Source: an uncultured virus (IMG/VR IMGVR_UViG_3300042445_002545) (taxonomy: Duplodnaviria; Heunggongvirae; Uroviricota; Caudoviricetes). From it: a stretch of 64,000 bases of DNA. The stretch lies in IMG/VR virus record IMGVR_UViG_3300042445_002545. One strand, given 5' to 3'. Below are positions 19,262 through 58,708 of the stretch, in pieces. Within the stretch, counting starts at the first letter, position 1, and each line of letters starts with the position of its first letter. The notes under the pieces were generated by a model. The model searched no databases. It was not told where the DNA came from and was given only the letters and a program-made list of their open reading frames with translations. Position numbers and translations under genes: made by a program.

Positions 19262-20149
19262 TTAATTCTGAAATAATTCCATTTTGATGCCTCTTCGATT
19301 CATATTTATTTTCATGATTTTTAAAGCTTTCTTTCTAACTTGTCTTACACCTTCTCGACTCATGTCAACTTTATGACCAATTTCAACTAAACTTAATGGT
19401 TCATAACCATTTAATCCATAAGTTAGTGTTATAATTTCTTTTTGTCTACAATCAAGAGTTGTCATGATTGAATCTAATACTGATTGTAAATCATTATTGT
19501 TAACTAAATGGTCAGCACTTAATGAATTACCGTTTTCAAGTACATCAATCATTGAACCACTATCCGAATCACTAGTGAATGGTGTGTCTAATGACATAAC
19601 TGACATAGTATCTAAACTTAATAACATATTAATGTTATCAAAATTCAAATCAGAACCTTCAAGTCCAACCAAATCTTGAGCAGCTGTTGGTCTTTGGTTG
19701 ATTTGTTCTAGACCAGACATTTCTCTCTTAAGTTTATTCAACTCAGTAATTCTATTTATTGGAATTCTAACAGTTCTAGAATACTTGTTCATGTAATCTG
19801 TCACATTTTTTCTTATATACCAAACAGCATAAGATATGAATTTGAAACCACGACTTGGGTCGAACTTTTGAGCAGCTTCAATTAAGCCATAGTTGCCCTC
19901 ATTAACCAATTCTTCAAGTGGTGATTTAGCATTGGTATATTGTTTAGCCACACTAATTACAAACTTTAAATTTCTCTCAATCAATTCATTTAAAGCATCA
20001 CTATCCCCATTGAAAGCTTTAATCGCACATTGATATTCTTCATCTGCGGTTTCAAATGATTTGATTGCTCTAACATCCATTAAGTATTGAGCGAATGCTT
20101 TTGATGATGTTCTGTCTGTAATTTTTTGGCTAATTTTTAATTGTCTCAT
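19262..20149 (-). CDS. RNA polymerase sigma-70 factor, RpoD/SigA-like (Bacteroidota type, no region 1.1)
   Basis: MRQLKI..IT start, NLKFVISVAKQY, EGNYGLIEAAQKFDPSRGFKFISYAVWYIR, region 4 SREGVRQ. Confidence 0.92.
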   Translation of the reverse strand: MRQLKISQKITDRTSSKAFAQYLMDVRAIKSFETADEEYQCAIKAFNGDSDALNELIERNLKFVISVAKQYTNAKSPLEELVNEGNYGLIEAAQKFDPSRGFKFISYAVWYIRKNVTDYMNKYSRTVRIPINRITELNKLKREMSGLEQINQRPTAAQDLVGLEGSDLNFDNINMLLSLDTMSVMSLDTPFTSDSDSGSMIDVLENGNSLSADHLVNNNDLQSVLDSIMTTLDCRQKEIITLTYGLNGYEPLSLVEIGHKVDMSREGVRQVRKKALKIMKINMNRRGIKMELFQN

Positions 20150-22002: not shown

Positions 22003-23046
22003 ATGATGAGAATTATGACATTTGAGAATATCAATAGATTAAGTAGTATGTACTACTTAAATAAAGCAATTAATGAATCTAAATTGCTTGTCGAATCATA
22101 CCCAAATGTTAATTCTTTATTATTAGAAGCTGATGATGATTCAGCATCTTATGAATGGGATTTTGTTAATAATAAATTCTATGATAGAGTAAATAATATT
22201 GAAACTGATATTAAAAAATCAGCATCATATGTTAGAACAGCTGAACAAGGTATAGATTTCATTAAGACATTAGTTGCTAAAGTTGCTGAATTACCAGATA
22301 AATTAAAATCTCGTGTTGTTAAGGTAGCAATAGCATCAATGGCATTAACAATGGGTTATAATCAATTGGTTGATGTTGATAGCAAAGTAGATGCTTTACC
22401 TAAAAACAATGTAGTAACGATGGTTGGTGACCTATTAGATAATGCTATAACTAAAAAAGAAGTACCACAAAAAGCCGAAAAACCTGTAGTAAAAGAAAAG
22501 TTTTCAAATAAAATAATTGATTTATTAAAAACTCATGAAGGTATTGGTGGTAAACCAGTACTTACCGCTTATAATATTGGTGACGGTGCATATACAATTG
22601 GATACGGTCACGCTGTATTTAAGGATATTTCTAGAGGTGATAATAGTAGTAGTTATGATTTCTTAGTATCATACGATGAGTATGAAAAAATGAAACAAAG
22701 AGGTGAAAAGGTAACCATAACACCAGAACAAGCTGAACAATTATTAAAAGATGATGTTAAAATAGCGGCTGAAGGTTTAGATAGATTGTTGAATGAATGG
22801 AAAGCTGATGGTGTTAACCCTAAAATAACTCAACCTATGTATGATGCTATGGTTTCAATGATTTATAATATGGGTGTTACCACATTTAGAAAAAGTGAAT
22901 TTATTCAATTAGTAAAACGTGGTAAATTTAAACAAGCTGCTGAAGCAATTAAAAGCACCAGCAGCCAAATGTTTAGAAAATATCCAGGATTAATAGTTAG
23001 AAGAGGTGATGAGTCTCAAACATTCACAGGTAATTACCCAACGTAA
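22003..23046 (+). CDS. GH24 lysozyme-domain protein with long N-terminal extension
   Basis: HEG...AYNIGDGAYTIGYGH, YDAMVSMIYNMG, GLIVRR. Confidence 0.85.
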   Translation: MMRIMTFENINRLSSMYYLNKAINESKLLVESYPNVNSLLLEADDDSASYEWDFVNNKFYDRVNNIETDIKKSASYVRTAEQGIDFIKTLVAKVAELPDKLKSRVVKVAIASMALTMGYNQLVDVDSKVDALPKNNVVTMVGDLLDNAITKKEVPQKAEKPVVKEKFSNKIIDLLKTHEGIGGKPVLTAYNIGDGAYTIGYGHAVFKDISRGDNSSSYDFLVSYDEYEKMKQRGEKVTITPEQAEQLLKDDVKIAAEGLDRLLNEWKADGVNPKITQPMYDAMVSMIYNMGVTTFRKSEFIQLVKRGKFKQAAEAIKSTSSQMFRKYPGLIVRRGDESQTFTGNYPT

Positions 23047-24575
23047 CCATCGTTACCCAATACACCACTAATTATTCTATGGAATATTAAATCAGGATAT
23101 CTTCTGATTGGGCTAGTTGTATGCATATAAAACTTAACACCTAAACCATAATGTCCTATATTTTTAGTTTGATAATTAGCTTTGGTCATGCATCTAACTA
23201 CTAAATTATTAATTATATTTTCTTCTGGTGTATCTTTAACTTCCTTAAGTAACCCATTTAGTTTATCCTTAATCTTATTATCATCAGATAAGTCTAATTT
23301 ATAACCAATCAATTCTATAAATGTTTTTAGTGATTCTAATCTAGTTGGGTCTGGTTCATCATGTGTTCTATGCAATGTCACAACACCTTTTTTTGTTACG
23401 TATTCACAAACTTGTCTGTTTGTTAAAACCATAAATTCCTCAATCAACCAATTTGATTCTTTTTGCTCAGTAAAATAAACGCCAAGTGGGTTTCCATTTA
23501 AATCTAAATCAAACTTAACTTCAGAACCTCTAAATTTTAATGAATTTTTATCACTTCTAATTTTTCTTATTTTACTTGCGTATCGATTCAAATCTAATAT
23601 AGCTCTTTTTAACTCTTTATTATAGATGTCACCACCTTCAATTACTTTTTGAACTTCAGTATATGTTAATCGGTAATTTGAATTGATTATACCACGACAA
23701 AACTTTTCTTTAATTACTTTACCATTTTGGTCAAGTGTGAATATAAATGAATAAACTAATTTATCAGTATGTGGGTTAAGTGAGCAAAGATTATTACTTA
23801 ATTTTTCTGGTAACATCGGTACAACTCTATCAACTAAATAAACCGATGTACCACGTTTATATGCCTCATCATCTATAGCTGTATTTGGTTTTACATAATA
23901 AGATACATCCGCAATATGAACAGCAACTTCAATATTACCATCAACCCATTGTACTGATAAGGCATCATCTAAATCTTTAGCTGTTTCACCATCAATAGTA
24001 AAAGTTAATATGTCACGCATATCTAATCTTTTAGCTATTTCTTTTTCTGAAATAACATCTGATATTAATTCAGACTCATTAATTACATTTTGTTTAAATT
24101 CATATGGTAGATTATATTCTTCCAATATACTATGAATTTCAACATCATTATTACCTGATTGACCTAATACTCTAATTACTTCACCATTAGGGTTTTTCTG
24201 ATTATCACCCCAAGTTGTCATTTTCACAACAACCTTTTCACCATTAGATGCACCCATTGTTTTATTTAATGGGATGAATATATCAATATTCATTCGTTTA
24301 TTATCTGGTATTAGAAAAGCATGCTTTAATGATATTTGCATAGTACCAACGAACTCAGTCTTGAATCGTTCTACAATCTCAATTACCTTACCTTCAAATT
24401 GACCATTATCAGTTTTGGTTAATTCAACTTTAACTATATCTAAATGCAATGCTTTGTTTACACTACCTTTATTGATATGTATACCCTTTTTTATATCTTG
24501 GTTTGTAACATAACCTGAACCGAATCCCGTAAGACCAATTTCACCAGTTACAATATCTCCTTTTTTAAACATCAA
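23034..24575 (-). CDS. rnr: RNase R N-terminal part (cold-shock domains plus RNB catalytic domain)
   Basis: TIDGETAKDLDDALS, HIADVS, RGTSVYL, PMLPEKLSNNLCSL, HTTSPIRRYPDL. Confidence 0.92.
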   Translation of the reverse strand: MMFKKGDIVTGEIGLTGFGSGYVTNQDIKKGIHINKGSVNKALHLDIVKVELTKTDNGQFEGKVIEIVERFKTEFVGTMQISLKHAFLIPDNKRMNIDIFIPLNKTMGASNGEKVVVKMTTWGDNQKNPNGEVIRVLGQSGNNDVEIHSILEEYNLPYEFKQNVINESELISDVISEKEIAKRLDMRDILTFTIDGETAKDLDDALSVQWVDGNIEVAVHIADVSYYVKPNTAIDDEAYKRGTSVYLVDRVVPMLPEKLSNNLCSLNPHTDKLVYSFIFTLDQNGKVIKEKFCRGIINSNYRLTYTEVQKVIEGGDIYNKELKRAILDLNRYASKIRKIRSDKNSLKFRGSEVKFDLDLNGNPLGVYFTEQKESNWLIEEFMVLTNRQVCEYVTKKGVVTLHRTHDEPDPTRLESLKTFIELIGYKLDLSDDNKIKDKLNGLLKEVKDTPEENIINNLVVRCMTKANYQTKNIGHYGLGVKFYMHTTSPIRRYPDLIFHRIISGVLGNDGYVG

Positions 24576-38888: not shown

Positions 38889-39707
38889 TTATGAATTTAT
38901 TAAATCATTTTTAATTTCATTAACTAGATTTAAATGTTCTGTACCAAATTTTTCCCAAGCTAAGCCCATTTGTTTCAAATCGTAATGTTTAACTACCGTA
39001 CTATAATCTTTAATACCATCTTTATGACCAATCACATAGATACTATCAGCCAATTCAACAGCCAGGTTAATATCATGTGTTGAGAATATGATAGTATTCA
39101 ATTCATGACTCTCTTGAATTAATTTAAATGCTGATTTAACATTCTCAATGTTACCAACATCTAAACCACTGAACGGTTCATCAAATACCATAAAATGACC
39201 TGATGATAACAGTTGTTCAATAATCGCAGTTCTTTGTCTTTGACCACCAGATAATTCACATGGGTATTTATCCTTATGTTCAAATAATCCCCAATCAGTT
39301 AGATACTTATCAATCAATGTTGATTTCTCATCTTTAGTGATACCTTTCTTTCTCAATGCATAATTACAGATTTGTGTAATTGTTTTGTGTCTAAACAATG
39401 TATACTTTTGGTCAACAAACCCAACATCACCTTCACCTACTAATTTAGCATCATCTTTATTAACACTACCTATATCAGTAATCAACACTCTACCTGTTGT
39501 TGGTTTAATCAAACCAGTCAAAGCTTTGAATAATGTTGATTTACCTCTACCAGAACGACCAACTACTGCGATTGTCTGACCAACTACAGAACCTTCCGAA
39601 ATAACATCGTGTTCAGTAATATTAATATCTTTAATAATTGTTTTACCATCATATGCGACACTAATGTTGTCAAGACATAAAATTGTTTCTTTAATTTCGT
39701 ATTTCAT
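38889..39707 (-). CDS. ABC transporter ATP-binding protein (NitT/TauT type)
   Basis: GRSGRGKST, LSGGQRQR, VFDEPFSGLD, STHD. Confidence 0.93.
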   Translation of the reverse strand: MKYEIKETILCLDNISVAYDGKTIIKDINITEHDVISEGSVVGQTIAVVGRSGRGKSTLFKALTGLIKPTTGRVLITDIGSVNKDDAKLVGEGDVGFVDQKYTLFRHKTITQICNYALRKKGITKDEKSTLIDKYLTDWGLFEHKDKYPCELSGGQRQRTAIIEQLLSSGHFMVFDEPFSGLDVGNIENVKSAFKLIQESHELNTIIFSTHDINLAVELADSIYVIGHKDGIKDYSTVVKHYDLKQMGLAWEKFGTEHLNLVNEIKNDLINS

Positions 39708-39709
39708 AA

Positions 39710-40477
39710 TTAGATTTTTGAATATCTGAATAAACGTTTTCTGATGAATGTTAATGTGAAGTCCATAAATAGACCAACTAACAAGATGATTAACTGCAAT
39801 GCAATGATTCGACCATGATTCATGAACTTATCAGAATTTTTAATAAGAAATCCTAAACCACCAGCAGCCGCTAATATTGATTCAACCGTTACTAACATCA
39901 TCCACACAATTGCTAGATTTTGTCTAACTACTTCAATAACGTAGTCCACACGACCTTTAATTACAACTTCCCATAGAATCTCCCATCTATTGCAACCAAG
40001 TGCTCTAGCGTGGTCAAAATCCTCTTGTGGGATATCTTTTAGCATTGCTAATAATGATGTTGTTAAATAAGTTGTCATAAATGTTACCAACACCCAAACT
40101 TGAATTGCTCTACCATCAGTTAATAATATTGATATGTAAAATGAAATTCCAGTTAAAGGTAGGTATCTAAATTTACTTAAAATATTAGATATCGGTGATA
40201 TTACTGGTAGTGTTGATAGATACGCAAATACCAAGGATATTGATATTGCAATTAATACAGCTTTACCACATAGTGCTAATGAACTAAATATGTGAACAAT
40301 TAATCCCTCTTTATAAAGTTCAGATACACCACTAAATACTTGGCCTGGTGTTGGGAACATATGTGTAGTCCCAAGACTAGATAAAACCCAAAGTGTTATA
40401 ATGGTTAACAACCAACCTAATCCTATAAAAAGTTTAGTTTTTTGGGTTATATTCTCGAAAGGTTTAAAAATATTCAT
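39710..40477 (-). CDS. ABC transporter permease (NitT/TauT type)
   Basis: Multiple TMs, EAA-like loop DHARALGCNRW, GGLGFLI. Confidence 0.9.
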   Translation of the reverse strand: MNIFKPFENITQKTKLFIGLGWLLTIITLWVLSSLGTTHMFPTPGQVFSGVSELYKEGLIVHIFSSLALCGKAVLIAISISLVFAYLSTLPVISPISNILSKFRYLPLTGISFYISILLTDGRAIQVWVLVTFMTTYLTTSLLAMLKDIPQEDFDHARALGCNRWEILWEVVIKGRVDYVIEVVRQNLAIVWMMLVTVESILAAAGGLGFLIKNSDKFMNHGRIIALQLIILLVGLFMDFTLTFIRKRLFRYSKI

Positions 40478-44792: not shown

Positions 44793-45241
44793 TTTTTTTC
44801 TTTTTTTCGTTAATAATATTTTTAATTACCTGACAAAGATATGTATAATATTTCAATTAAACAAATATTTTTTAATTTTTTTTGATTTTTGTTGAGTGAA
44901 GAGGAATTGAACCTCAAGCATCTAGTATAAGAGACTGCCGTCCCCGCCTCGTCCAGAGCACCCAATGGTTTAAATTAAACTTTTTCCCAATAAGTTTTAG
45001 TTATCACCTTCTCTTTCTTTTCAACCCTATTAAGTTCTGTGATATCACTATCCTCTCTACCATAATCAGAATCAAAAACATAAGTATTAGTTTCCCAATA
45101 ACCATCTAATTCTCTAGGTAATTCTGGGAAATATTTTTCAGATATTTCAGTTATTGACCTGGTAAAGAAGTTAGAACCCCTTCTATGTTCTTCATAACTA
45201 TCTTCTTGAAAGTCTTCAATTAAGATATCAAAATCAATACC

Positions 45242-45322
45242 TAATTCTTTTGCGATTTGTCTTGTTATTTTATTAATCATAATTCTTTTGCGATTTGTCT
45301 TGTTATTTTATTAATCATAATT
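45242..45322. repeat. 38-bp direct tandem duplication covering a gene start
   Basis: TAATTCTTTTGCGATTTGTCTTGTTATTTTATTAATCA x2. Confidence 0.9.
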
Positions 45323-46851
45323 TTAATAGGTTGATTGGAATTTACTTTCTTCTAAAAAAGAACCTACTGTTTCCTTACTTTGCATTATTAAATCTTTAGC
45401 TATCTTTTCAGATATTACTTTATAGATAACATTTAAAATAGCATCCTGATGTGAACCATCTTCAAAATACTCTTTAAACTTTGTTTTAATACCAAATAAA
45501 TCAATAGTATCTTTCACATGAAACTCTTTACCATTTAATACAAACTTACAATGCATAATTATAGTATTTTCGAAGTGAGTTCCATAAGAAGTATTTATAA
45601 AAAACCCTTCAGCTGTTATAATGTTATCATTTAATTTAAAATGATGCATTATATTTTCAATTGCTTTTTCTTGAAACTCATTTAATAATTCTACACTTTT
45701 ATCTGTTGGTGCTTTATGCTCATGTACAGTTTTTTCGTAAGGTACTAAACGTTCTGTATAAGTGTGTGTATTTTTACTCATATTTTAATTTTTATCTACT
45801 TCTTTAGCTCTTTTAGTACCTAATGATATCGGTAATAAGGCCCAACCAAATACCCATGCTACTAAAAACCCTTGTAGATTAATTCCAGCTTTTTGATACA
45901 TGTCCATACCTATGACATATAAAGTACTGAAAACCCAGTATAAAAATAATAAATTATCCATAATTTTTAATTGTTAATAAGAACAAACATTCTTTTTTTA
46001 TTTGATGGTTTTTTAAATAAATCAGCAAATCTATCATTGAAACTATCTAATTCAGAATAATCTATTACTGCAACTGAATGATTAACGTAATCATCTTCAT
46101 CTACTACATCTAAATCTTTAATTGGTGTTAAATAGCAATCATAATCGGCTATTTCAGTAAAAATAAAACAATCACCTTTATGCTGATATTTCCATTCACC
46201 AATTTGACTATTCAAACCCTTACCTATTGGTATTGCAGCAGTATCGAAATCAATATCATGTTCACTTAAATCTGGTAATACTAATAACATATCACATTCA
46301 AGCATTGGTTTATGGGAATAAGACCCACCTTTAAATTCAACTAACTCAATATCAAATTTAGAAAGTCTAACCCTGACGGCCATTAGGTCATCAGGGTTTA
46401 CCTTATTAGATTTGGCTAAATATATCTTAGTTTTCATTTTCAGATACGAACCATTCGTTTTTAATTTCATTGGCAACTTCCAATTCAATAGCTTTCAACT
46501 TAATTTCCATCTTAGTGTCGTGCAATTCATTCATCCATCTTGATGCATCAAAATCTTTGCTACCTGGACGTAAACTGTATGTGTTGTCTGGTGCCAAATC
46601 AGTTAAACTAGTTAACTTATTGTTTAATTTTGAAAGCTCACGTTTCAATGTATTGATAAATGTATCAACTTCCAAGATTGTGTCTTCAGCTAATTGTTTA
46701 GCTCTTGTTTCTTTAATTGTATTATCAGAAGCTGATAACATGTTTACAAATTTACTCATAGTTTATTATTTTAATTATTAATTAATCAGGATGCAAATAT
46801 AATATCTTTTTTTTAATTACGCAACTTTTTTTAAACTTTTTTTGATTTTAG

Positions 46852-46924
46852 TTGAGATAAGGGGTTTCGAACCCCGTGTTTCCACCCGTCTAGGTGGCGT
46901 TCTAACCAATTAAACTATATCCCA
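46852..46924 (-). tRNA. Atypical tRNA with a 6-nt anticodon loop and G3.U70
   Basis: Good acceptor, D and T arms; CCACC-TAGACG-GGTGG. Confidence 0.55.
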
Positions 46925-46929
46925 ATTTG

Positions 46930-47058
46930 TCGATGTTAAGGGACTCGAACCCATGAGCGGATGCCTCCTATTGTGTTACCTATTATTTAACGTGGACTCG
47001 AACCACACAGCCACCAAGACCAAATCCGAATCGAACGGAATACTCGCCAACAACACCG
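46930..47058 (-). ncRNA. tRNA-like RNA with three T-loop hairpins
   Basis: CGGTGTT/AACATCG-A closing stem; TTCGATT, TTCGAGT, TTCGAGT loops. Confidence 0.55.
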
Positions 47059-47061
47059 TTG

Positions 47062-47204
47062 TGGAGGATACAGGACTCGAACCTGTGGCCATGGGGTTAT
47101 CCCCACATCTATTTATCAGGCTAATTCATTGTACTTCTGAATCTCAAACACCCTATCTTCAATGGTAACTATAGTTACTACTCTACCAACTGAGCTAATC
47201 CCCC
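47062..47204 (-). ncRNA. 143-nt Ala-acceptor tRNA-like RNA with the anticodon arm replaced by a long insert
   Basis: GGGGGAT/ATCCTCC-A (G3.U70), canonical D arm and T arm. Confidence 0.7.
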
Positions 47205-47248
47205 AAATAAGATTTTTGTAATTACCTGGAATCTTGTAACCAGTTATG

Positions 47249-47322
47249 TGGAGCTAGGGGTGTATGATACCCCATCTCCGCATTGCAAGTGCGGTGTGTT
47301 AGCCAGTTGTCACCATAGCCCC
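47249..47322 (-). tRNA. tRNA-Ala(TGC)
   Basis: CCGCA-CTTGCAA-TGCGG, G3.U70; atypical T-loop ATCATAC. Confidence 0.85.
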
Positions 47323-47456
47323 AAATTAAGCTAAATAAATAAGTCTTCGTCTCTCCTAGCTGGCCCACTTGAAGATTTAATCTTCGTGCCCGACTCGAAC
47401 GGGAATGCTAGCGACTCAATCCAGCTTGCCCATAAATGGGTACTTATTTAACTTAG

Positions 47457-47528
47457 CGGTCCCACGGGTAATCGAAACCCGAACTCTGCCGTGACAGGGC
47501 AGCATTATTGCCGTTTAACTACAGGACC
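47457..47528 (-). tRNA. tRNA-Asp(GTC)
   Basis: CTGCC-CTGTCAC-GGCAG, G73. Confidence 0.92.
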
Positions 47529-47594
47529 AAAGTTACTTTTTCTTTCTCAGCTATTCAGCGTCTAGGAAATATAAAAGTATAAAACCCTACATCG

Positions 47595-47664
47595 TATTGG
47601 GTATGGGACTCGAACCCATATCAACCGCTCACTGCGGCCATCCTGACCATTAGACGAACCCAAA
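47595..47664 (-). tRNA. Degenerate tRNA (Glu/Asp-type D arm, anticodon unresolved)
   Basis: T arm ATGGG-TTCGAGT-CCCAT; anticodon arm GCCGC-AGTGA-GCGGT. Confidence 0.5.
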
Positions 47665-47735
47665 AAACCAACTTTATCTGACTGCAATCATCAATCATTG
47701 GCTCTCTTGCAAGTATTGCAGTACTTGCTTGATAG

Positions 47736-47807
47736 TCACCCATACGGTAGTCGAAACCGTGTTTTTAGGTTGAAAACCTAACGTCCTAACCACTAGACGA
47801 ATGGGCG
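47736..47807 (-). tRNA. tRNA-Glu(TTC)
   Basis: TTAGG-TTTTCAA-CCTAA. Confidence 0.9.
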
Positions 47808-47943
47808 TGTTAAATGTACTAATTCCTTATAGGTGACTAGATTTATCCTTTCGGACTAGATGGGTAGCCTAGCGACTTATCGACACAATTATCGATGTCC
47901 TTTTTCTAATACTTCATATCACGTTTACCTTCAATACATTTTG

Positions 47944-48017
47944 TGGTACCAGTGGGACTCGAACCCACGACACCTAGAGCTTCAATCTAGTGCTACTACC
48001 AACTGAGCTACAGTACC
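47944..48017 (-). tRNA. tRNA-Phe(GAA)
   Basis: CTAGA-TTGAAGC-TCTAG. Confidence 0.9.
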
Positions 48018-48029
48018 ATTATTGTTTTA

Positions 48030-48061
48030 CAAAGATATGAATAATTTTTTAATTATCCAAA
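48030..48061 (-). promoter_or_regulatory. Internal Bacteroidota-type promoter just upstream of tRNA-Phe
   Basis: TTTG-N20-TATCTTTG. Confidence 0.7.
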
Positions 48062-48131
48062 TTTTTTATATTTTTTTTTAATTTAATATTTCAAAGAACG
48101 TGAAACCGATGTTTCTGTTATTGTTATAAAC

Positions 48132-48164
48132 AAAAAAAGCTCTGATTTTTAGGTCAGAGCTTTT
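48132..48164 (-). terminator. Attenuator terminator of tRNA operon 2
   Basis: AAAAGCTCTGA-CCTAAAAA-TCAGAGCTTTTTTT on minus strand. Confidence 0.85.
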
Positions 48165-48187
48165 ATCAATTATGTTAAACGATTACG

Positions 48188-48277
48188 TTAACTTATGACA
48201 ATAGTTGACCTTCCCAAGCTTTCATCCGCCTCGGCTGCAAAAAATGCAAAATCAAATATGTTAGTTAATGTTCTCAT
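48188..48277 (-). CDS. Leader peptide 2 MRTLTNIFDFAFFAAEADESLGRSTIVIS
   Basis: Residues 8-19 are only F/D/A/E. Confidence 0.85.
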   Translation of the reverse strand: MRTLTNIFDFAFFAAEADESLGRSTIVIS

Positions 48278-48299
48278 TGTGTTTTTTATTCGTGTTCTA

Positions 48300-48342
48300 A
48301 TTAAATATATGCAAATATACTAAAAGTTTTTTTATTTGTCAA
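48300..48342 (-). promoter_or_regulatory. tRNA operon 2 promoter (30-bp repeat, copy 2)
   Basis: TTG-N20-TATATTTG, identical 30-mer. Confidence 0.85.
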
Positions 48343-48361
48343 GTTTTTTTAAAACTTTTTT

Positions 48362-49012
48362 TTATTTTCTTATTTTACCTAGGAAATCCTTAGTATTATT
48401 AATACCTATAGCGTTTACTATTTGTCTTAAAAAAGTTTGTCTACTTTCAGTATTACTTTCTTTATACTGATTTATAAGATTAACAACTTCTTGCTCTTTA
48501 TCTCTAGATAATTTTGTTTTATAATCAGCAACATCTAATATACTCATGTAATAGTAACCATCAATTAATTCAGCACTATCTAAAATTTCATTTGTTGACC
48601 TAACTCTTACATCAGCATATGAACCTCCAGCTTTTGATGGGTCCCAAATAGTAAAAGCTTCAATTGAACCGTCTGATGTTGGTCTATATATACCACCATT
48701 TTTTAATTCTTCCTGTAGTCCAGCATTTATCCAAAGTTGCTCATCTGGTATCACTATATCTAAATCACCAATAGTACCACTTAATCCAAATGCGTCTCTT
48801 AATTTGGGGTACAAATACAATCTAGCTGACCCACCAATGAAGTACGATTTATTATTGGGTACTATACCAAATTTTTTAAAAATTAATTCATCAGCTCTAC
48901 TTAATAATGTATTTAAACCACTAGTGTCAACTTCATTTACTAAATCCTCACTTACGTTTTTCCAAAATTCTTTTAAAAAAAATTCGTTTATATAAATCTC
49001 ACTTAATCTCAT
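48362..49012 (-). CDS. Nucleotidyltransferase-fold protein
   Basis: FIGGSA...GDLDI motif; K..LSRDK. Confidence 0.6.
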   Translation of the reverse strand: MRLSEIYINEFFLKEFWKNVSEDLVNEVDTSGLNTLLSRADELIFKKFGIVPNNKSYFIGGSARLYLYPKLRDAFGLSGTIGDLDIVIPDEQLWINAGLQEELKNGGIYRPTSDGSIEAFTIWDPSKAGGSYADVRVRSTNEILDSAELIDGYYYMSILDVADYKTKLSRDKEQEVVNLINQYKESNTESRQTFLRQIVNAIGINNTKDFLGKIRK

Positions 49013-49514
49013 ATTCTTTTAATCTATCAATTACTTCTTTATTATATTGACATTCAATTGTCAATTTTTTAAATGATAGAAACATACTTAATGGTCTTGG
49101 TCCATTTAGAAATAAGAAATTATAAGCTGACCATTCACTAGTCACATAATAACTTTTTCTATTTTCCATTATATCCAATAAACACATTGGGTGTTTATTG
49201 ACATATTTCCAATCATATTTGTAACAAAGTTTAGATAAATTTTTCATAAATAATCTAAACTCAATAATTCTAGTGATTAATGTTACTAGAACAAACCCTA
49301 AAAGTGTAATTACTATCATATTATAAATATTTAAACTTTATCAAATATAATAACTATTTTTGTACTATCCAAATTTATTTGATTATTTTTTTGATTATTT
49401 AAACCATAAGCATCACATGATGTTTTTGTTGTTGCACAAGATGCTAGTATTATCGCTAGTAATATTAATTTTTTCATATTAATAAATATGTTGATTATTT
49501 TTAAAATAATTAAG

Positions 49515-49594
49515 TACCTCTGGCGGGACTCGAACCCGCAAGAACTCGGTTTCTAAGACCGTTAGCTGTGCCAATTTACATAAGTCACAGAGGC
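49515..49594 (-). tRNA. tRNA-Leu(TAG), short variable loop and enlarged D region
   Basis: CGGT-CTTAGAA-ACCG; A73. Confidence 0.8.
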
Positions 49595-49602
49595 ATATTT
49601 TG

Positions 49603-49685
49603 TACTCCAAGAGGGGCTCGAACCCTCACGCCCTACGGGCACAGCATTTTAAGTGCTGCGTGTCTACCAATTCCACCATCGGAGC
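49603..49685 (-). tRNA. tRNA-Leu(TAA)
   Basis: CAGCA-CTTAAAA-TGCTG, long variable arm. Confidence 0.92.
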
Positions 49686-49731
49686 ATTTTGCACTTCCTA
49701 CCCATCCATATCGTATAGTGCTAACCGCTAG

Positions 49732-49805
49732 TACACCCTGTAGGATTCGAACCTACGACCCTTCGGATGTAAACCGAATGCTCTAACCAACTGAGCTAAA
49801 GGTGC
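49732..49805 (-). tRNA. tRNA-Val(TAC)
   Basis: TTCGG-TTTACAT-CCGAA. Confidence 0.92.
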
Positions 49806-49816
49806 ATGTGGTAGGT

Positions 49817-50146
49817 TTAACCCACCTTTATAAATGTTTCATTCTTTATGGATTTACTAATCCATCTGTTAAGCTCGGAGCCCCTCATTTCACTGTAGAA
49901 AGTAGTTGTTCCAAGGTCTTCAGACAATGTTGTAAACACATCTGACTCCTTAACTTCTGCACCAACTTCTAAAGTTGATACATGATATCTAACCTTTACA
50001 TCAACTGTTGAAATTGGAAACTCGTATATATCACCAAACACTTCAATGTTGTAATACAAGTTACCAGCAATATAGTGACTAAACTTAGCCATTGCTTTTG
50101 ACTTAAATAAGTCTTTTTTTATTTCAGTTTCATTAAACATAACCAT
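49817..50146 (-). CDS. Hypothetical protein embedded in tRNA operon 3
   Basis: 109-aa ORF between tRNA-Cys and tRNA-Val. Confidence 0.7.
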   Translation of the reverse strand: MVMFNETEIKKDLFKSKAMAKFSHYIAGNLYYNIEVFGDIYEFPISTVDVKVRYHVSTLEVGAEVKESDVFTTLSEDLGTTTFYSEMRGSELNRWISKSIKNETFIKVG

Positions 50147-50305
50147 TTTTTTTTCTTCGTTTAAAGAGTAACTTTATAGTATTTAAACTAATCTTATTAT
50201 TTTTATCAGCTCTAACATGTCTAAAATTTTCATATGACCCTTTATATGTTCCCGTTAATACTACTTTCCCCTCATTATCTTTTCTTTCCATAATCTATCT
50301 TTTTG

Positions 50306-50378
50306 AGCTGGGAGAGGGATTTGAACCCCCGTATGTGGATTTGCAATCCACTGCCTAAAGCCACTCGACCATCCCAGC
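50306..50378 (-). tRNA. tRNA-Cys(GCA)
   Basis: GTGGA-TTGCAAA-TCCAC, U73. Confidence 0.92.
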
Positions 50379-50385
50379 ATTAAAC

Positions 50386-50417
50386 AAAAAACCCGAAGTG
50401 ACTAATCGCTTCGGGTT
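50386..50417 (-). terminator. Attenuator terminator of tRNA operon 3
   Basis: AACCCGAAGCGA-TTAG-TCACTTCGGGTTTTTT on minus strand. Confidence 0.85.
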
Positions 50418-50446
50418 GTGAATATTGTTTATTTATTATTAAACTA

Positions 50447-50521
50447 TCAACACAGCCCAAAACTGACTACCACTAAAAGTAGACATAAGTTAAGCACCAA
50501 AATGTTGTTAATTGTTTTCAT
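50447..50521 (-). CDS. Leader peptide 3 MKTINNILVLNLCLLLVVVSFGLC
   Basis: 11 of residues 8-19 are L/V/C. Confidence 0.85.
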   Translation of the reverse strand: MKTINNILVLNLCLLLVVVSFGLC

Positions 50522-50545
50522 CGTATTAATTTTTTAATCGTTTTA

Positions 50546-50588
50546 ATTAAATATATGCAAATATACTAAAAGTTTTTTAATTTGTCAA
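50546..50588 (-). promoter_or_regulatory. tRNA operon 3 promoter (30-bp repeat, copy 3)
   Basis: TTG-N20-TATATTTG, identical 30-mer. Confidence 0.85.
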
Positions 50589-50650
50589 GTTTTTATGTAA
50601 AAATATTTTTTTTATTTACAATTTAATCAAATTTGATTATAATTTACCCG

Positions 50651-50962
50651 ATGGATAAGGTATATTTACTAGCAAATGAAGAATGGACACAATTTAAAAT
50701 TGGTGTCACAAAAAACGTAACTAATAAACGAAAAAGTGATTTACAAACTGGTAATGGTTCTGAAATAATTATTGTTAATACTTTTGAAACTAGATTTTCA
50801 AACAAAGTTGAGAAGTGGTTACATAGAAAATATAATTCAAAGCGATTAGTTGGTGAATGGTTTGCGCTTAATGACAATGATATTACTAATTTCATATCTG
50901 ATTGTCAAAAAGCGCATGATACATTCCAATGTTTAATCGATAGTGAGAATCCTTTTATTTAA
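50651..50962 (+). CDS. T5orf172/MUG113-type GIY-YIG domain protein
   Basis: VYLL..FKIGVT..R..LQTGN..EKWLHRKY..GEWF. Confidence 0.85.
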   Translation: MDKVYLLANEEWTQFKIGVTKNVTNKRKSDLQTGNGSEIIIVNTFETRFSNKVEKWLHRKYNSKRLVGEWFALNDNDITNFISDCQKAHDTFQCLIDSENPFI

Positions 50963-52173
50963 GAATCGAATCTAACTTCTAAAGTTGTATAATCTTGTTT
51001 TATATTATAGAATTCTTTTCTAATATAAATTAATAAAGCATTTACCAAACCTTGGTCAACCTTTTTAGGTAAATCTGAATTATCAAATATACTATCCATT
51101 TCTTCAATAGCCTGGTCAGCCATTGCTATTAAATTTTCCAAATCAACTTCACCACGTCTAATTGCAAGTAACTCTTGAGCATCTTCTCTACGAACATTAA
51201 TACCTTCACCTCTACCAATCTCTTGGGCCATTCTAATAAGTCGGATACAATGCATCATATTCTTACCATCGATGCGTTGACCATGTTCTTGCGTTTCAAC
51301 ATAACGAGTATCATTACGGTTTTCCAACCATTCTTGGTATTCTCTATAATCTTTGCAGTGCACAGTGTAACCGTCTTTGTTGTAGATAATATTACAAATA
51401 GGTGTTTCACCTTTTGGTATGCTTGAAAGACGTAGTTGGTTGGATTCAGCCGCATTTGTACCTTCACCAGACTTGACTAAACCTTTATAACCAAATCCTA
51501 ATGGCAAATTGTTCTTAGTTCTATTTTGTTTTGCAGACTCCCTTACATTTTCAGGAATTGATTCACTAAAACACAAAGTTGCTAACATATCAAAGTAAAC
51601 AGCATAAACGTCTCTTGCATTTGGAACATTTACAACCCCAATAAATTTTTCTTCGTAGTTGTAATCCTCGTTCCAAACTTTCCATGGAATAGATTTTTCA
51701 CCTTCAATAACATAACAGAAATCCAATACATCTTTACGAGTCACTTTGTCTTTCTCCCAGTTTTGTTTCTTATCAAGACCTTTCGCCTTCTTGATTTGTT
51801 GTCTAGCGTAGCCACCGAATGAATCCTTACAAATCTTTGTAATAAACTCATCCTTATGCGCAATTATAACATCAAACAATGGATGTTTAGATACAATGCA
51901 ATCTTCAGGGCTATTAAGTAATTCTAAAACTGTTGGGTTATTGCTACCCATTAGTTCTAGGAAACGTCTAATTTCCCACCCAACGTAATCTTTATTTACG
52001 TTTATTTGTTCAACATACCCAGTACCTAAGATATAATCTTGTGGTAGTATATATACAAATTTTTTGTCTATATCAGATGTTGGTGTCTGCGTTCCATACG
52101 CTTGTGACCCAACTATTGTTTCAAATAGGATTAACCCATTTTCAACTAAAAATTCATGCGTTATTTGTTTCAT
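50959..52173 (-). CDS. Pol-beta-superfamily nucleotidyltransferase (YcgL/RlaP-like)
   Basis: GSQAYGTQTPTSDID, NNPTVLELL, KNMMHCIRL, LLAIRRGE. Confidence 0.85.
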   Translation of the reverse strand: MKQITHEFLVENGLILFETIVGSQAYGTQTPTSDIDKKFVYILPQDYILGTGYVEQINVNKDYVGWEIRRFLELMGSNNPTVLELLNSPEDCIVSKHPLFDVIIAHKDEFITKICKDSFGGYARQQIKKAKGLDKKQNWEKDKVTRKDVLDFCYVIEGEKSIPWKVWNEDYNYEEKFIGVVNVPNARDVYAVYFDMLATLCFSESIPENVRESAKQNRTKNNLPLGFGYKGLVKSGEGTNAAESNQLRLSSIPKGETPICNIIYNKDGYTVHCKDYREYQEWLENRNDTRYVETQEHGQRIDGKNMMHCIRLIRMAQEIGRGEGINVRREDAQELLAIRRGEVDLENLIAMADQAIEEMDSIFDNSDLPKKVDQGLVNALLIYIRKEFYNIKQDYTTLEVRFDS

Positions 52174-54048: not shown

Positions 54049-55476
54049 TTATTTAATTTTTATTTTTGTCCCTTGTGACATTTTTTCTACTGTTATACTA
54101 AACCCATGTTCTTTAAGAATTGCTTTACAGATGTTTAAACCTAAACCTGTACCAGTTTCTTTTTGACCTTCTTTTCTTACATACGGTTTTGATAACTCAT
54201 CAAATTCCTTTTGTGTAATACCTCTACCATTGTCCTCAACACAAATATAACCATCTTCTAAGTATATTTTAATAAATCTACTCGGACTGTCATTATATTT
54301 TAAACCATTTCTTATTAGGTTATCTATTGCTGTACAAAATAATGCTTCATTAACTTCAATTGTGGGTAAATTATTATCCAGTAAAACTTGTGATTTATAT
54401 GCTGTTGCTGATAAGTAATCTTGGAGGATGTCTTTGATATTGTATTCACCCTTATTTAAGGTTGAGTCTTTTTTAACTAGGTTTGTGAATTCATATACAC
54501 CTTTATAAACTTTTTGTGTATGCTTTAGTCCCTCTTTAATCATTTTAAGTGGTGCCTCAATTTTAAGGTTATTAATATCTTCTTGTGTTAATCTCCTTTC
54601 TAATGAAGAAAGACCTCTGGGCATATAAGTATTAATACCAGAATGCATATCATGTCTTAAAATTTTAGCAGCATGTTCTAGATATGTGTTTTTCTTTTCA
54701 ATTTCTTCAGATTGTAAAATTTTATCTGTAACATCAATGGCAATTTTCATAATTTTAACCACCTTTCCATTATCATCTAGAATTGGGTTATATGTTGCTT
54801 GTAGCCAAATTATTTCACCACCATGTTTAATTCTAGAAAATCTAGATGATATAAATTCACCTCTACTAAGTTTAACCCAAAATTCTTTATAATCCTCACT
54901 TTTTGAATACTCACTATCAACAAATATACTATGGTGTTTACCGATTAATTCTTCTTGAGAATAACCCATGATATGACAAAAATTATCATTAGCTAATATT
55001 ATATTACCAAATAAATCAAATTCAATAACCGCATTTGATTGGTTAATAGCATTAATTATATTTTTAATCTCTAATTCATTTTTTTTAACTAATGTAACAT
55101 CATGCCTAATTGAAATAAAACCCATTAATTTGCCATTAATATCAAATTCAGCTTTTATATAGGTATCAACATAGTAAAAATCACCGTTTTTAGTTTTATT
55201 TGTAACAACTGAGTTCCAGATACCCTTGTCAACTATAACAGTCTTATACATGTTTGACCAAAAATTTTTATTATGAATCCCAGAATTAACGATATTATGG
55301 TTTTTACCCACAACTTCTTCTAATGACCACCCAGAAACTTCTTCGAATTTTTTATTAACATATGTGATGTTACCTTTAGCATCTGCTTTAGAAATTAAAA
55401 CTGAACTATCAACAAATTGACTAAAGTCATATAATTCTTTATTTAAGTCATTAATTTTATCTAAAGGGTCTTGCAT
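54049..55476 (-). CDS. PAS-PAS sensor histidine kinase
   Basis: Two PAS/PAC domains, LRHDM H-box, DNLIRNGLKY, DNGRG, GTGLGL. Confidence 0.92.
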   Translation of the reverse strand: MQDPLDKINDLNKELYDFSQFVDSSVLISKADAKGNITYVNKKFEEVSGWSLEEVVGKNHNIVNSGIHNKNFWSNMYKTVIVDKGIWNSVVTNKTKNGDFYYVDTYIKAEFDINGKLMGFISIRHDVTLVKKNELEIKNIINAINQSNAVIEFDLFGNIILANDNFCHIMGYSQEELIGKHHSIFVDSEYSKSEDYKEFWVKLSRGEFISSRFSRIKHGGEIIWLQATYNPILDDNGKVVKIMKIAIDVTDKILQSEEIEKKNTYLEHAAKILRHDMHSGINTYMPRGLSSLERRLTQEDINNLKIEAPLKMIKEGLKHTQKVYKGVYEFTNLVKKDSTLNKGEYNIKDILQDYLSATAYKSQVLLDNNLPTIEVNEALFCTAIDNLIRNGLKYNDSPSRFIKIYLEDGYICVEDNGRGITQKEFDELSKPYVRKEGQKETGTGLGLNICKAILKEHGFSITVEKMSQGTKIKIK

Positions 55477-57649: not shown

Positions 57650-58708
57650 TCATAATCCTACTAATTCATTTAATTTTATTAAAAACATTTCTCTCGTTTT
57701 AGTTGAAATGTATTTATTTATTTCTTTGGGTTCAAGATTATTCTCAATCATGGTATCCATTTCTTCTTTGATAACATCATTTACAACCCATCTAATTACG
57801 TCACCCATTTTCTTAACATCTAATGGTTCTTCATTAGGGAATACGTTTTCGATTGCTTGGTTAACACGACTTTCGGTAACCGAATATTCTACAAACTCTT
57901 TAATTGAGTTTAATTTTTCAACATCAACAGTTGCTAAGGTTTTAACTTTAGAGGAGCTATGTAATTCACCCTTCACCTTGAACCTATGTACAACATTTTG
58001 AAATTCACAAGACCAAACGATACCTTCACCAATCCCTGAGAAGCCAAATGCTTTCGCTACAGGACATTCTTCCTCAACTGCAATAGTCAACTCGGATAAT
58101 TGATTTTGAATCAACTGAGGCATGTTAAAATCGATATCAATTGAATACGTTTCATAATCATCGATATTGTAAATTTTAACCTCTGGTGCTCTCAAGTATG
58201 TTGAATCAACCCAATAAGCTGGATTAGCTTTTAATTCTTCTTCAGTTTCAGTATGTGGTGTAATTTTAACACCAAATATGAAGAATGATTTAGGTAAGTT
58301 GGAAATACCAACACCTTTTTGAATATTACCACCAGCCCATTCACCATAAATACTAATAGTATTATTGTTTCTATTAATATTTTCTTTTTCAGCAACATGT
58401 AACATTAAACCATAAAAAATATCCTTATTTGATTCCACAAAGAATGCAAATCCAGCGTTATCTTTTTCTGGTGTGATGATATTCTCACGAGATTGTGCCC
58501 ACAAATCATCTTGACTATTATAAGAAACACCAGCATTAGTACCATGTAATTTTATAGTACCTTTAAAGGTTAATACTGGTTTAGGTAAATTTGGGTCATA
58601 AATCGCCTCACCATTTTCATCTAAACCAACAAAATTGTATCGTCTATTAACATTAGAAACAACAGTTCTAAATTGTTCAATAGACGGAAATTTAATCATT
58701 TTTTTCAT
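57650..58708 (-). CDS. RNA ligase, Rnl2-like
   Basis: KLHGTN, QSR, YGEW, FFIFG, EGIVW, FKVK. Confidence 0.85.
   Translation of the reverse strand: MKKMIKFPSIEQFRTVVSNVNRRYNFVGLDENGEAIYDPNLPKPVLTFKGTIKLHGTNAGVSYNSQDDLWAQSRENIITPEKDNAGFAFFVESNKDIFYGLMLHVAEKENINRNNNTISIYGEWAGGNIQKGVGISNLPKSFFIFGVKITPHTETEEELKANPAYWVDSTYLRAPEVKIYNIDDYETYSIDIDFNMPQLIQNQLSELTIAVEEECPVAKAFGFSGIGEGIVWSCEFQNVVHRFKVKGELHSSSKVKTLATVDVEKLNSIKEFVEYSVTESRVNQAIENVFPNEEPLDVKKMGDVIRWVVNDVIKEEMDTMIENNLEPKEINKYISTKTREMFLIKLNELVGL

Follow-up and report, generated by a model that had tools for sequence, protein, structure and literature searches.

A probable leader-peptide attenuator in front of a tRNA gene cluster of an uncultured phage and its paralogues with matching tRNA sets

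The closest described counterparts of the element reported here are the multivalent leader peptides of enterobacteria, such as thrL (Thr/Ile) and ilvL (Ile/Leu/Val), together with trpL, hisL, and pheL, with which it shares a short open reading frame (ORF) with clustered codons for several amino acids, the alternative pairings 1:2, 2:3, and 3:4, and a switch set by the position of the ribosome. In E. coli, the leader attenuator of pheST (pheM) controls phenylalanyl-tRNA synthetase; there, too, Phe codons in the leader monitor Phe-tRNA supply and thereby control a part of the translation machinery. The T-box riboswitches of Firmicutes likewise act by transcription antitermination, report tRNA status, and control genes for translation supply. 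The reason why phages carry tRNA genes is debated, with codon-usage matching on the one hand and compensation for tRNAs that host defence or shut-off has removed on the other, and the control of these genes is, to our knowledge, largely unknown. Here, we analysed a stretch of 64,000 nt (the window) from an uncultured virus of the Caudoviricetes (IMG/VR record IMGVR_UViG_3300042445_002545), in which a leader unit, termed unit B, precedes a cluster of tRNA genes on the minus strand. Judged from its sequence and from modelled folds, unit B most likely represents a trp-style, ribosome-mediated (leader-peptide) transcription attenuator gating this phage tRNA operon. The structural elements of the thrL/ilvL type, namely a codon cluster, a terminator, an antiterminator exclusive with it, and a 1:2 protector, were all found in unit B, the folds being in silico. 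At the level of sequence, the best match among the Rfam leader families was Thr_leader with 23.2 bits against a gathering score of 55, and it covered only the terminator (48130-48183).

The window has a G+C content of 30%, and the features of the leader unit are all located on its minus strand (Table 1). The leader promoter overlaps a 27-nt element (48326-48300) that is identical in all three leader units of the window, and it is followed by an A-rich 5' untranslated region (5' UTR) without a Shine-Dalgarno sequence. The 20 nt upstream of the leader ORF contain 65% A and no Shine-Dalgarno core, resembling in this regard the 34 long ORFs of the window, none of which revealed such a core and whose upstream regions average 55% A. 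Residues 8-19 of the leader peptide consist exclusively of F, D, A, or E (12 of 12), each of which is served by a tRNA of the cluster, namely Phe(GAA), Asp(GUC), Ala(UGC), or Glu(UUC), the decoding of GCC by tRNA-Ala(UGC) resting on established wobble rules. This run is the longest of the set {A,D,E,F} among the 1,562 stop-to-stop frames of at least 20 amino acids in all six frames of the window, the next one comprising seven residues at a background frequency of the set of 0.223. A previous sequence-only reading of the window had already pointed out both the sensor run and the canonical tRNAs Phe(GAA), Glu(TTC), Asp(GTC), and Ala(TGC) downstream of it, and its coordinates and pairings, all on the minus strand, proved correct throughout. 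The leader terminator is the best terminator-like site within positions 45000-51500, and the leader RNA as a whole folds with a z score of -3.09, with 2 of 200 shuffled sequences folding as well.

Table 1. Positions of the leader units, the tRNA genes behind unit B, and further features in the window, with antiterminator segments of relatives.
Feature	Position	Strand	Details
Leader promoter (unit B)	48342-48312	minus	TTGACA (48342-48337), 17 nt, TATATT inside TATATTTG (48319-48312); 11 of 12 consensus matches
Leader ORF (predicted)	48277-48188	minus	ATG at 48277, stop codon 48190-48188; 29 codons plus stop; peptide MRTLTNIFDFAFFAAEADESLGRSTIVIS
Sensor codons 8-19	48256-48221	minus	UUU GAU UUU GCA UUU UUU GCA GCC GAG GCG GAU GAA = F D F A F F A A E A D E (FDFAFFAAEADE)
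Region 1	48261-48248	minus	5' strand of 1:2 protector hairpin; overlaps first sensor codons
Region 2	48212-48198	minus	core AGGUCA at 48211-48206; alternative partners: region 1, or terminator 5' arm and loop
Antiterminator (2:3)	48211-48151	minus	AGGUCA:UGACCU, UUGUCA:UGAUAA, GUUAACG:CGUUUAAC; encloses last 7 codons, stop codon, and spacer
Antiterminator segments, window and relatives			window AGGUCA/UGACCU; L041 UGGUCGA/UCGACCA; L042 and L046 AGGGUC/GACCCU; L033 GUGGUCGG/CCGACCAC; L030 GGUCAAC/GUUGGCC
Intrinsic terminator (3:4)	stem 48164-48135, T-run 48138-48132	minus	AAAAGCUCUGA / loop CCUAAAAA / UCAGAGCUUUU; 11 pairs and 7 U
boxA-like motif (putative)	48099-48091	minus	GTTCTTTGA(AA); between terminator and internal promoter
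Internal (bypass) promoter, candidate	48061-48030	minus	TTTGGATAATTAAAAAATTATTCATATCTTTG; TTTG 48061-48058, N20, TATCTTTG 48037-48030; ends 12 nt before tRNA-Phe (48017)
Regulated tRNA cluster	48017-46851	minus	Phe(GAA) 48017-47943; Glu(UUC) 47807-47735; Asp(GUC) 47528-47456; Ala(UGC) 47322-47248; plus three aberrant tRNA-like genes
His(GTG)-like tRNA	47664-47594	minus	U.U first pair; missed by Rfam tRNA model
Arg(CCT)-like tRNA-like gene	47204-47061	minus	52-nt insert in anticodon loop; also weak tmRNA match
tRNA-?(ga)	46924-46851	minus	6-nt anticodon loop; ARAGORN names the counterpart in relative L036 Ser(aga)
Unit A	50588-50385	minus	same promoter element; leader MKTINNILVLNLCLLLVVVSFGLC (50521-50447), terminator; tRNA-Cys 8 nt past T-run
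Unit C	35950-35690	minus	ATG 35875; leader MKTTGTTYQPKQYTQGGKPSVTGVSYQVESDKLI (MKTTGTTYQPKQYTQGGKP...; MKTTGTTYQPKQYTQGGKPSVTG...), terminator, GTTCTTTGACAT
Further sites of the 32-nt promoter family	42965-42934, 44865-44834, 38730-38699	gene strand	
RNA ligase, RlaP-type RNA-repair nucleotidyltransferase, RNase II/R, PAS histidine-kinase-like protein, ABC-transporter ATPase and permease	listed with 57650-58708, 50959-52173, 23034-24575, 54049-55476, 38889-40477		

Folding with ViennaRNA, with the ribosome imitated by masking, revealed mutually exclusive structures for the leader. Without a ribosome, the full leader folded into a long 1:2 hairpin, in which the sensor codons are paired with GGAAGGUCAA..., plus the terminator (-35.7 kcal/mol), the antiterminated state lying only 2.8 kcal/mol higher (-32.9 kcal/mol). 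In the growing transcript, 1:2 was the minimum-energy fold at lengths of 80-110 nt and was replaced by the antiterminator at 127-138 nt; the full-length transcript again formed 1:2, now together with the terminator. When the transcript was truncated before the 3' arm of the terminator and the ribosome placed at any of codons 8-18, the three-part antiterminator became the minimum-energy fold with -16.1 kcal/mol, comprising the helix between the complementary segments AGGUCA (48211-48206) and UGACCU (48156-48151) as well as its two extensions, just as the sequence-only reading had drawn them. A ribosome at the stop codon covers the inner stems of this antiterminator. The terminator itself has a fold energy of -13.9 kcal/mol, and its equilibrium probability was 0.02 when the A site was placed at codon 14, compared to 0.92 for a ribosome at the stop codon. 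An equivalent antiterminator was detected in the truncated-transcript folds of all 16 distinct members of the family described below, although their terminators differ.

For the mechanism, we infer translation of the leader ORF, stalling of the ribosome, and read-through of the terminator. RNA polymerase would start at the leader promoter and transcribe the 29-codon ORF, whose codons 8-19 ask for nothing but Phe, Asp, Ala, and Glu, matching the four canonical tRNAs encoded downstream. If the sensor is read fast, the ribosome would reach the stop codon and sit on the inner stems of the antiterminator, so that the terminator forms and transcription ends. At a shortage of charged sensor tRNAs, the ribosome would stall in the sensor and occupy region 1, leaving region 2 free to pair with the top of the 5' arm of the terminator and its loop; the terminator would be blocked, and the polymerase would enter the genes for tRNA-Phe, Glu, Asp, and Ala. 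With no ribosome present, region 1 would pair with region 2 first and the terminator would form. A second, ordinary phage promoter 12 nt before tRNA-Phe would provide attenuator-independent expression in this phage and its nearest relatives, and the boxA-like motif between the terminator and this bypass promoter may make read-through polymerases resistant to termination. The phage probably makes more Phe, Asp, Ala, and Glu tRNAs when its ribosomes run short of them.

A search of IMG/VR with a degenerate DNA pattern for the peptide FDFAFFAAE resulted in 20 loci on 20 contigs, among which 16 distinct members were distinguished. The pattern is held by codons 8-16 of a 29-codon frame at all 20 loci, one of them with an extra in-frame ATG upstream, and at each locus the frame is followed by a terminator and by tRNA-Phe(GAA) as the first downstream tRNA, usually with Glu, Asp, and Ala thereafter. 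Applied to 185,579 prokaryote species, represented by one genome each, the same pattern gave seven matches in frames of 49-474 codons, none of which had a tRNA within 1.5 kb (0 of 7); these matches are unrelated and provide no clue to the host. Frame length, start codon, and position of the stop codon are kept in all 16 distinct members. Inside the sensor, third positions change (TTT/TTC, GCA/GCG/GCT, GAG/GAA), and codon 17, which lies outside the search pattern, encodes Ala or Glu, both from the sensor set. Residues 19-29 vary freely, e.g., ESLGRSTIVIS, KSQGRSTIVKS, YSYGRSNTVIS, CSKGGRILSKS, CFSGGSCVANS, and FTLGWSDNVKN, with frame length and RNA pairing kept. As further observations on this family, the element CATAT(A)TTTA(T/A)... 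(48311-48298 in the window) is present in the 5' UTR of every member despite differing distances to the promoter, and some relatives carry an additional small co-varying hairpin there (GGGGAAACCC, GUGGAAACCCAC, GGGUUAAAACCC). Inspection by eye revealed no consistent pairing of the conserved 5'-UTR element CATATTTAT with the spacer behind the stop codon.

Alignment of the 16 sequences revealed that the pairings themselves are maintained. The core antiterminator helix (columns 69-72 with 129-132) is paired in all 16, the pair 72:129 being AU in twelve, GC in two, and GU in two of them, and column 72 can pair both with column 24 in the 1:2 hairpin and with column 129 in the 2:3 structure in 16 of 16 sequences. 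The 1:2 helix (columns 17-30 with 66-80) is paired to 92.3% and the terminator helix (helix 5) to 97.3%, with 5 of its 11 pairs changing on both sides. Taken together, the structure of 1:2 plus terminator is 86.4% paired, above all 500 shuffles; seven of its pairs changed on both sides, a number reached by 2 of 500 shuffles, and its co-variation score is 0.143 versus 0.106 (0 of 500). Duplexes between region 2 and the 5' arm of the terminator are more stable in their cognate combinations (mean of -10.2 kcal/mol) than in permuted ones (-8.7 kcal/mol), which was matched by 1 of 20,000 permutations, or by 2 of 20,000 if only the 13 distinct combinations were considered.

Unit B is one of three paralogous leader units in the window (A, B, and C), and a fourth one (D) was found on relatives. 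The 27-nt element of promoter and 5' UTR recurs identically at 48326-48300, 50572-50546, and 35934-35908, which was seen in none of 100 shuffles, and downstream of every copy lie a short ORF, a strong terminator, and a cluster of tRNA genes. Scanning IMG/VR for this element yielded 19 loci representing 12 distinct units, all 12 with same-strand tRNAs downstream of the leader. Behind the tRNA-Cys gene of unit A, two small ORFs precede genes for tRNA-Val and tRNA-Leu and a weak tRNA detected by Rfam only (49585-49515), and the equilibrium probability of its terminator drops to about 0 with the ribosome at codons 6-12. Unit C precedes tRNA genes for Pro, Gln, Tyr, Thr, Gly, Gly, Lys, and Lys, and its leader harbors a run of 18 residues from its own amino acid set, the next-longest in the window being eight. 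Unit D, with the leader MITNNIHRMSISNWRRNS..., lies outside the window on a contig whose units A and B are identical to those of the window, and it is followed by Asn, His, (Trp,) Ser, Ile, Met, Arg, Arg, and Ser tRNAs. Jointly, the four leaders partition the 20 amino acids into L/V/C, F/D/A/E, T/G/Y/Q/P/K, and N/I/H/R/M/S/W, each set being that of the tRNAs behind its leader. In a leader-by-cluster matrix, the fractions for the own set were 0.57, 0.43, 0.70, and 0.71, and all off-diagonal values were at most 0.32. The same partition was found in the diverged relative G004 with all four units, whose unit C leader (MTTTTTYQTQYQPKGGKP) keeps the composition and not the residue order. Relative G002 possesses units C and D only and is devoid of Phe, Asp, Ala, Glu, Leu, Val, and Cys tRNAs. 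The idea of a Phe/Asp/Ala/Glu attenuator, put forward in the sequence-only reading, is thus supported by what the sequences reveal on all 20 contigs, by the co-variation of region 2 with the terminator, and by the paralogues with their matching tRNA sets.

Among the alternatives, the one that survives best, though unlikely, is that the attenuator reads amino acid starvation or a general slowing of translation and not the shortage of particular tRNAs, its purpose then being timing or global tuning instead of tRNA homeostasis. Classical trp and his attenuators respond to the charged fraction, a missing amino acid would stall the ribosome equally well, and several synonymous codons (GCA, GCC, and GCG; GAG and GAA) are sampled by the sensor. 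Extra tRNA, however, does not relieve amino acid starvation, and a global signal would hardly account for the exact partition of 20 amino acids, with each leader gating its own tRNAs. The RNA-repair genes of the window also seem to point to tRNA damage as a relevant stress.

How the cluster can be reached by RNA polymerase bears on a second alternative, which we consider improbable: the short ORF could be an independent gene for a small protein with its own terminator, the tRNA cluster being transcribed from the internal promoter only and the match of amino acids being without regulatory meaning. The strength of the terminator would fit such a gene, as would a full, consensus-like promoter 12 nt before tRNA-Phe, and the peptide of unit A, if viewed alone, resembles a hydrophobic signal or membrane segment. 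In regard to this promoter, the octamer TAnnTTTG alone is not enriched in the window (126 versus 118 occurrences), and the two-box motif TTTG-N18-21-TAnnTTTG has 14 occurrences on the gene strand and a single one on the opposite strand, compared to 1.1 +/- 1.0 in shuffles. The 14 gene-strand sites share an extended 32-nt consensus (TTTGGATAATTGAAAAATTAT...TATaTTTG), mostly just before start codons, and we take the motif to resemble the housekeeping promoter of the Bacteroidota type (-33 TTTG, -7 TAnnTTTG). Since the internal promoter of unit B closely fits the consensus of these 14 sites, it is a credible one, and near relatives have it at the corresponding place, 12-18 nt ahead of tRNA-Phe. 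To this extent, the second promoter past the terminator noted in the sequence-only reading stands, but the full motif is present in just 5 of the 16 distinct members; in two, the spacer lacks the full motif, three carry an inserted ORF, and in the remaining six (including the types of L037, L041, and L042) tRNA-Phe begins 9-15 nt past the T-run, leaving no room for a promoter. Among the sequences compared, the internal promoter is clade-specific. Since read-through of the terminator is the only visible route to the cluster in the six members without such room, these members argue most strongly for a terminator made to be read through, and they speak against an independent gene, as does the fact that four different leaders each match their own tRNA set. 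Moreover, the C-terminal halves vary in amino acids yet keep the pairing with the terminator, and the composition but not the sequence is preserved between unit C and its G004 counterpart. For unit B as an attenuator with this additional promoter, we infer basal plus inducible expression of the cluster. The internal promoter belongs to a class different from the TTGACA-type leader promoters, and since the phage also encodes its own sigma-70-family factor (19262-20149), the two classes may correspond to two temporal or sigma classes. The ORFs between attenuator and tRNA-Phe, of 25-132 codons, occur in L030/L034, L035, and L039, and by eye their N-termini look like homing-endonuclease-like phage ORFs, a tentative resemblance.

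The third alternative, namely that the leader RNA senses a tRNA or another factor without being translated (T-box-like or by protein-mediated antitermination) or that, once released by termination, it works chiefly as a trans-acting small RNA, is very improbable: although the structure alone gives alternative folds, and although trans functions of a terminated attenuator RNA are described for rnTrpL, neither a T-box nor any other Rfam family matched (the T-box covariance model had no match within 46000-51000 at E values up to 1, nor in the whole window at the gathering score, where Rfam found tRNAs only), the 29-codon frame, its start, and its stop position are kept in 16 of 16 members with third-position changes inside the sensor, the start context is like that of real genes, and the signal is amino acid identity, readable only by translation.

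Several observations weigh against unit B being a leader-peptide attenuator. The 20 loci were chosen by the peptide itself, and the conservation of residues 8-16 is therefore circular, since the search pattern demands those residues. In the equilibrium calculations, 7 of the 16 unit-B members showed a strong dip of terminator probability at the sensor codons, 3 a partial one, and 6 none, and ribosome masks gave no such dip in units C and D; for these, the argument therefore rests on the kinetic truncated-transcript folds, which are weaker and model-dependent. Of the 11-bp terminator stem, the antiterminator of the window captures no more than 3 nt, together with 3 nt of the loop, so that most of the stem is formally free. 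As a whole, the antiterminator is not paired above column shuffles (78.1% versus 77.2%, a level reached by 71 of 500 shuffles), owing to the conservation of most of its columns, and relative L047 displays a mismatch in the core helix (AAGUCA versus UGACCU). In addition, related sequences share ancestry, and the permutation tests therefore overstate independence. Finally, since a strong promoter lies right in front of tRNA-Phe, expression of the cluster in this phage would be possible with no read-through at all.

Downstream of the terminator, the boxA-like motif GTTCTTTGA deserves attention. The window contains it three times without mismatch, always on the minus strand, and two of these copies stand just after leader terminators (unit B, 48099-48091; unit C, 35668-35660). 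Upstream of 16S, the interval in the rRNA leader is the place of boxA, the NusB/NusE site of rRNA operons, and there, 88-220 nt before the 5' end of 16S, the identical 9-mer was found in 12 of 31 rRNA leaders from 27 sampled Bacteroidota genomes. With one mismatch allowed, the motif is not enriched in the window (25 versus 25.1). Since the window counts are small and this enrichment is missing, we keep a boxA role as a hypothesis that might equally well hold or fail, the Bacteroidota host being itself deduced. Within the window, the motif precedes the internal promoter and would be carried only by transcripts that have passed the attenuator.

Viewed together, the leaders might constitute a four-channel tRNA homeostat, a reading that we put forward tentatively and consider somewhat less likely than not. 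The four leaders would split the 20 amino acids, each gating only its own tRNA operon; scarce species would be replaced, boxA would add processivity, and RNA ligase and nucleotidyltransferase would form a parallel repair arm. If this is true, exactly those tRNAs that are lost in infection would be replaced, e.g., after cleavage by a host anticodon nuclease or after host shut-off, and tRNA genes would be under demand-driven control by translation itself.

In regard to its origin, the window, which harbors 19 tRNA genes, looks like part of a very large phage genome. Public runs containing the stretch are mostly labelled as lake-water metagenomes, and among those listed for positions 46800-50700 none is recorded as RNA. 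Of the virus records compared, the closest is a 40-kb contig with a CheckV completeness of 11%, and among the relatives G002 has 288 kb with direct terminal repeats and G004 has 362 kb and is classed as linear, both with a CheckV estimate of 100%. In a distant BLASTn comparison of positions 47900-49100 with 50,697 phage records, the matches were confined to the tRNA-Phe gene and one short stretch, and no annotated relative was revealed. Apart from the genes given in Table 1, the window encodes a phage lysozyme. The A-rich gene starts without Shine-Dalgarno sequences and the promoter type point to Bacteroidota as host, an assignment that relies on general consensus sequences.

Some features of the tRNA genes are recorded here in their own right. 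The gap between tRNA-Phe and tRNA-Glu is 135 nt in the window (47942-47808) and 4 nt in relative L032, and the spacers of the unit-B cluster carry inserted sequence. In relatives L037/L048 (tRNA after Phe) and in L052 (G004), ARAGORN identified tRNAs with the anticodons UCA ('SeC') and CUA ('Pyl'), which may be suppressor tRNAs, hinting at stop-codon reassignment or suppression in some phages. In another part of the window (36650-36125, minus strand), a TTGACA...TATCTTTG promoter and GTTCTTTAA precede roughly 400 nt of sequence that is richer in G+C, seems to be structured, and has no Rfam match; tRNA-Lys and tRNA-Met come next. These 400 nt may represent an unknown RNA or degraded tRNA-like genes.

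If attenuation by unit B holds true, phage tRNA supply would be a closed feedback loop, in which a leader reads the codons served by the tRNAs behind it, and trp-type attenuation would be extended from metabolic genes to the decoding machinery. The element of about 215 nt makes the question of phage tRNA control testable; given the near-perfect TTGACA-17-TATATT promoter, standard reporter assays or cell-free systems should be suitable for it. Built-in specificity controls would come from the four natural channels, whose amino acid sets are disjoint, and a natural comparison from the same attenuator with and without the bypass promoter in related phages. In a literature search that covered journals other than subscription journals and saw its sources in part, we found no account of tRNA genes under leader-peptide or attenuation control, nor one of the boxA 9-mer; one of the papers (PMC3082878) mentions a tRNA operon in an unrelated context.

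Compared with the known systems, unit B differs from each in a different respect. The boxA of rRNA operons lies upstream of 16S, whereas the motif of unit B follows an attenuator and precedes tRNA genes, and its binding and function are putative. T-box riboswitches bind uncharged tRNA directly and without translation, whereas unit B has a conserved 29-codon ORF. The product of the operon behind pheM is a synthetase and not a tRNA, and its leader senses a single amino acid. In contrast to attenuators of the thrL/ilvL type, with which it has no sequence similarity, unit B seems to gate tRNA genes instead of biosynthetic enzymes or aminoacyl-tRNA synthetases, is phage-borne, and stands in a Bacteroidota-type expression context without Shine-Dalgarno sequences. 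Altogether, by analogy with these leaders, attenuation of tRNA genes would extend the known multivalent leader-peptide mechanism, the gated tRNA cargo being the new part.

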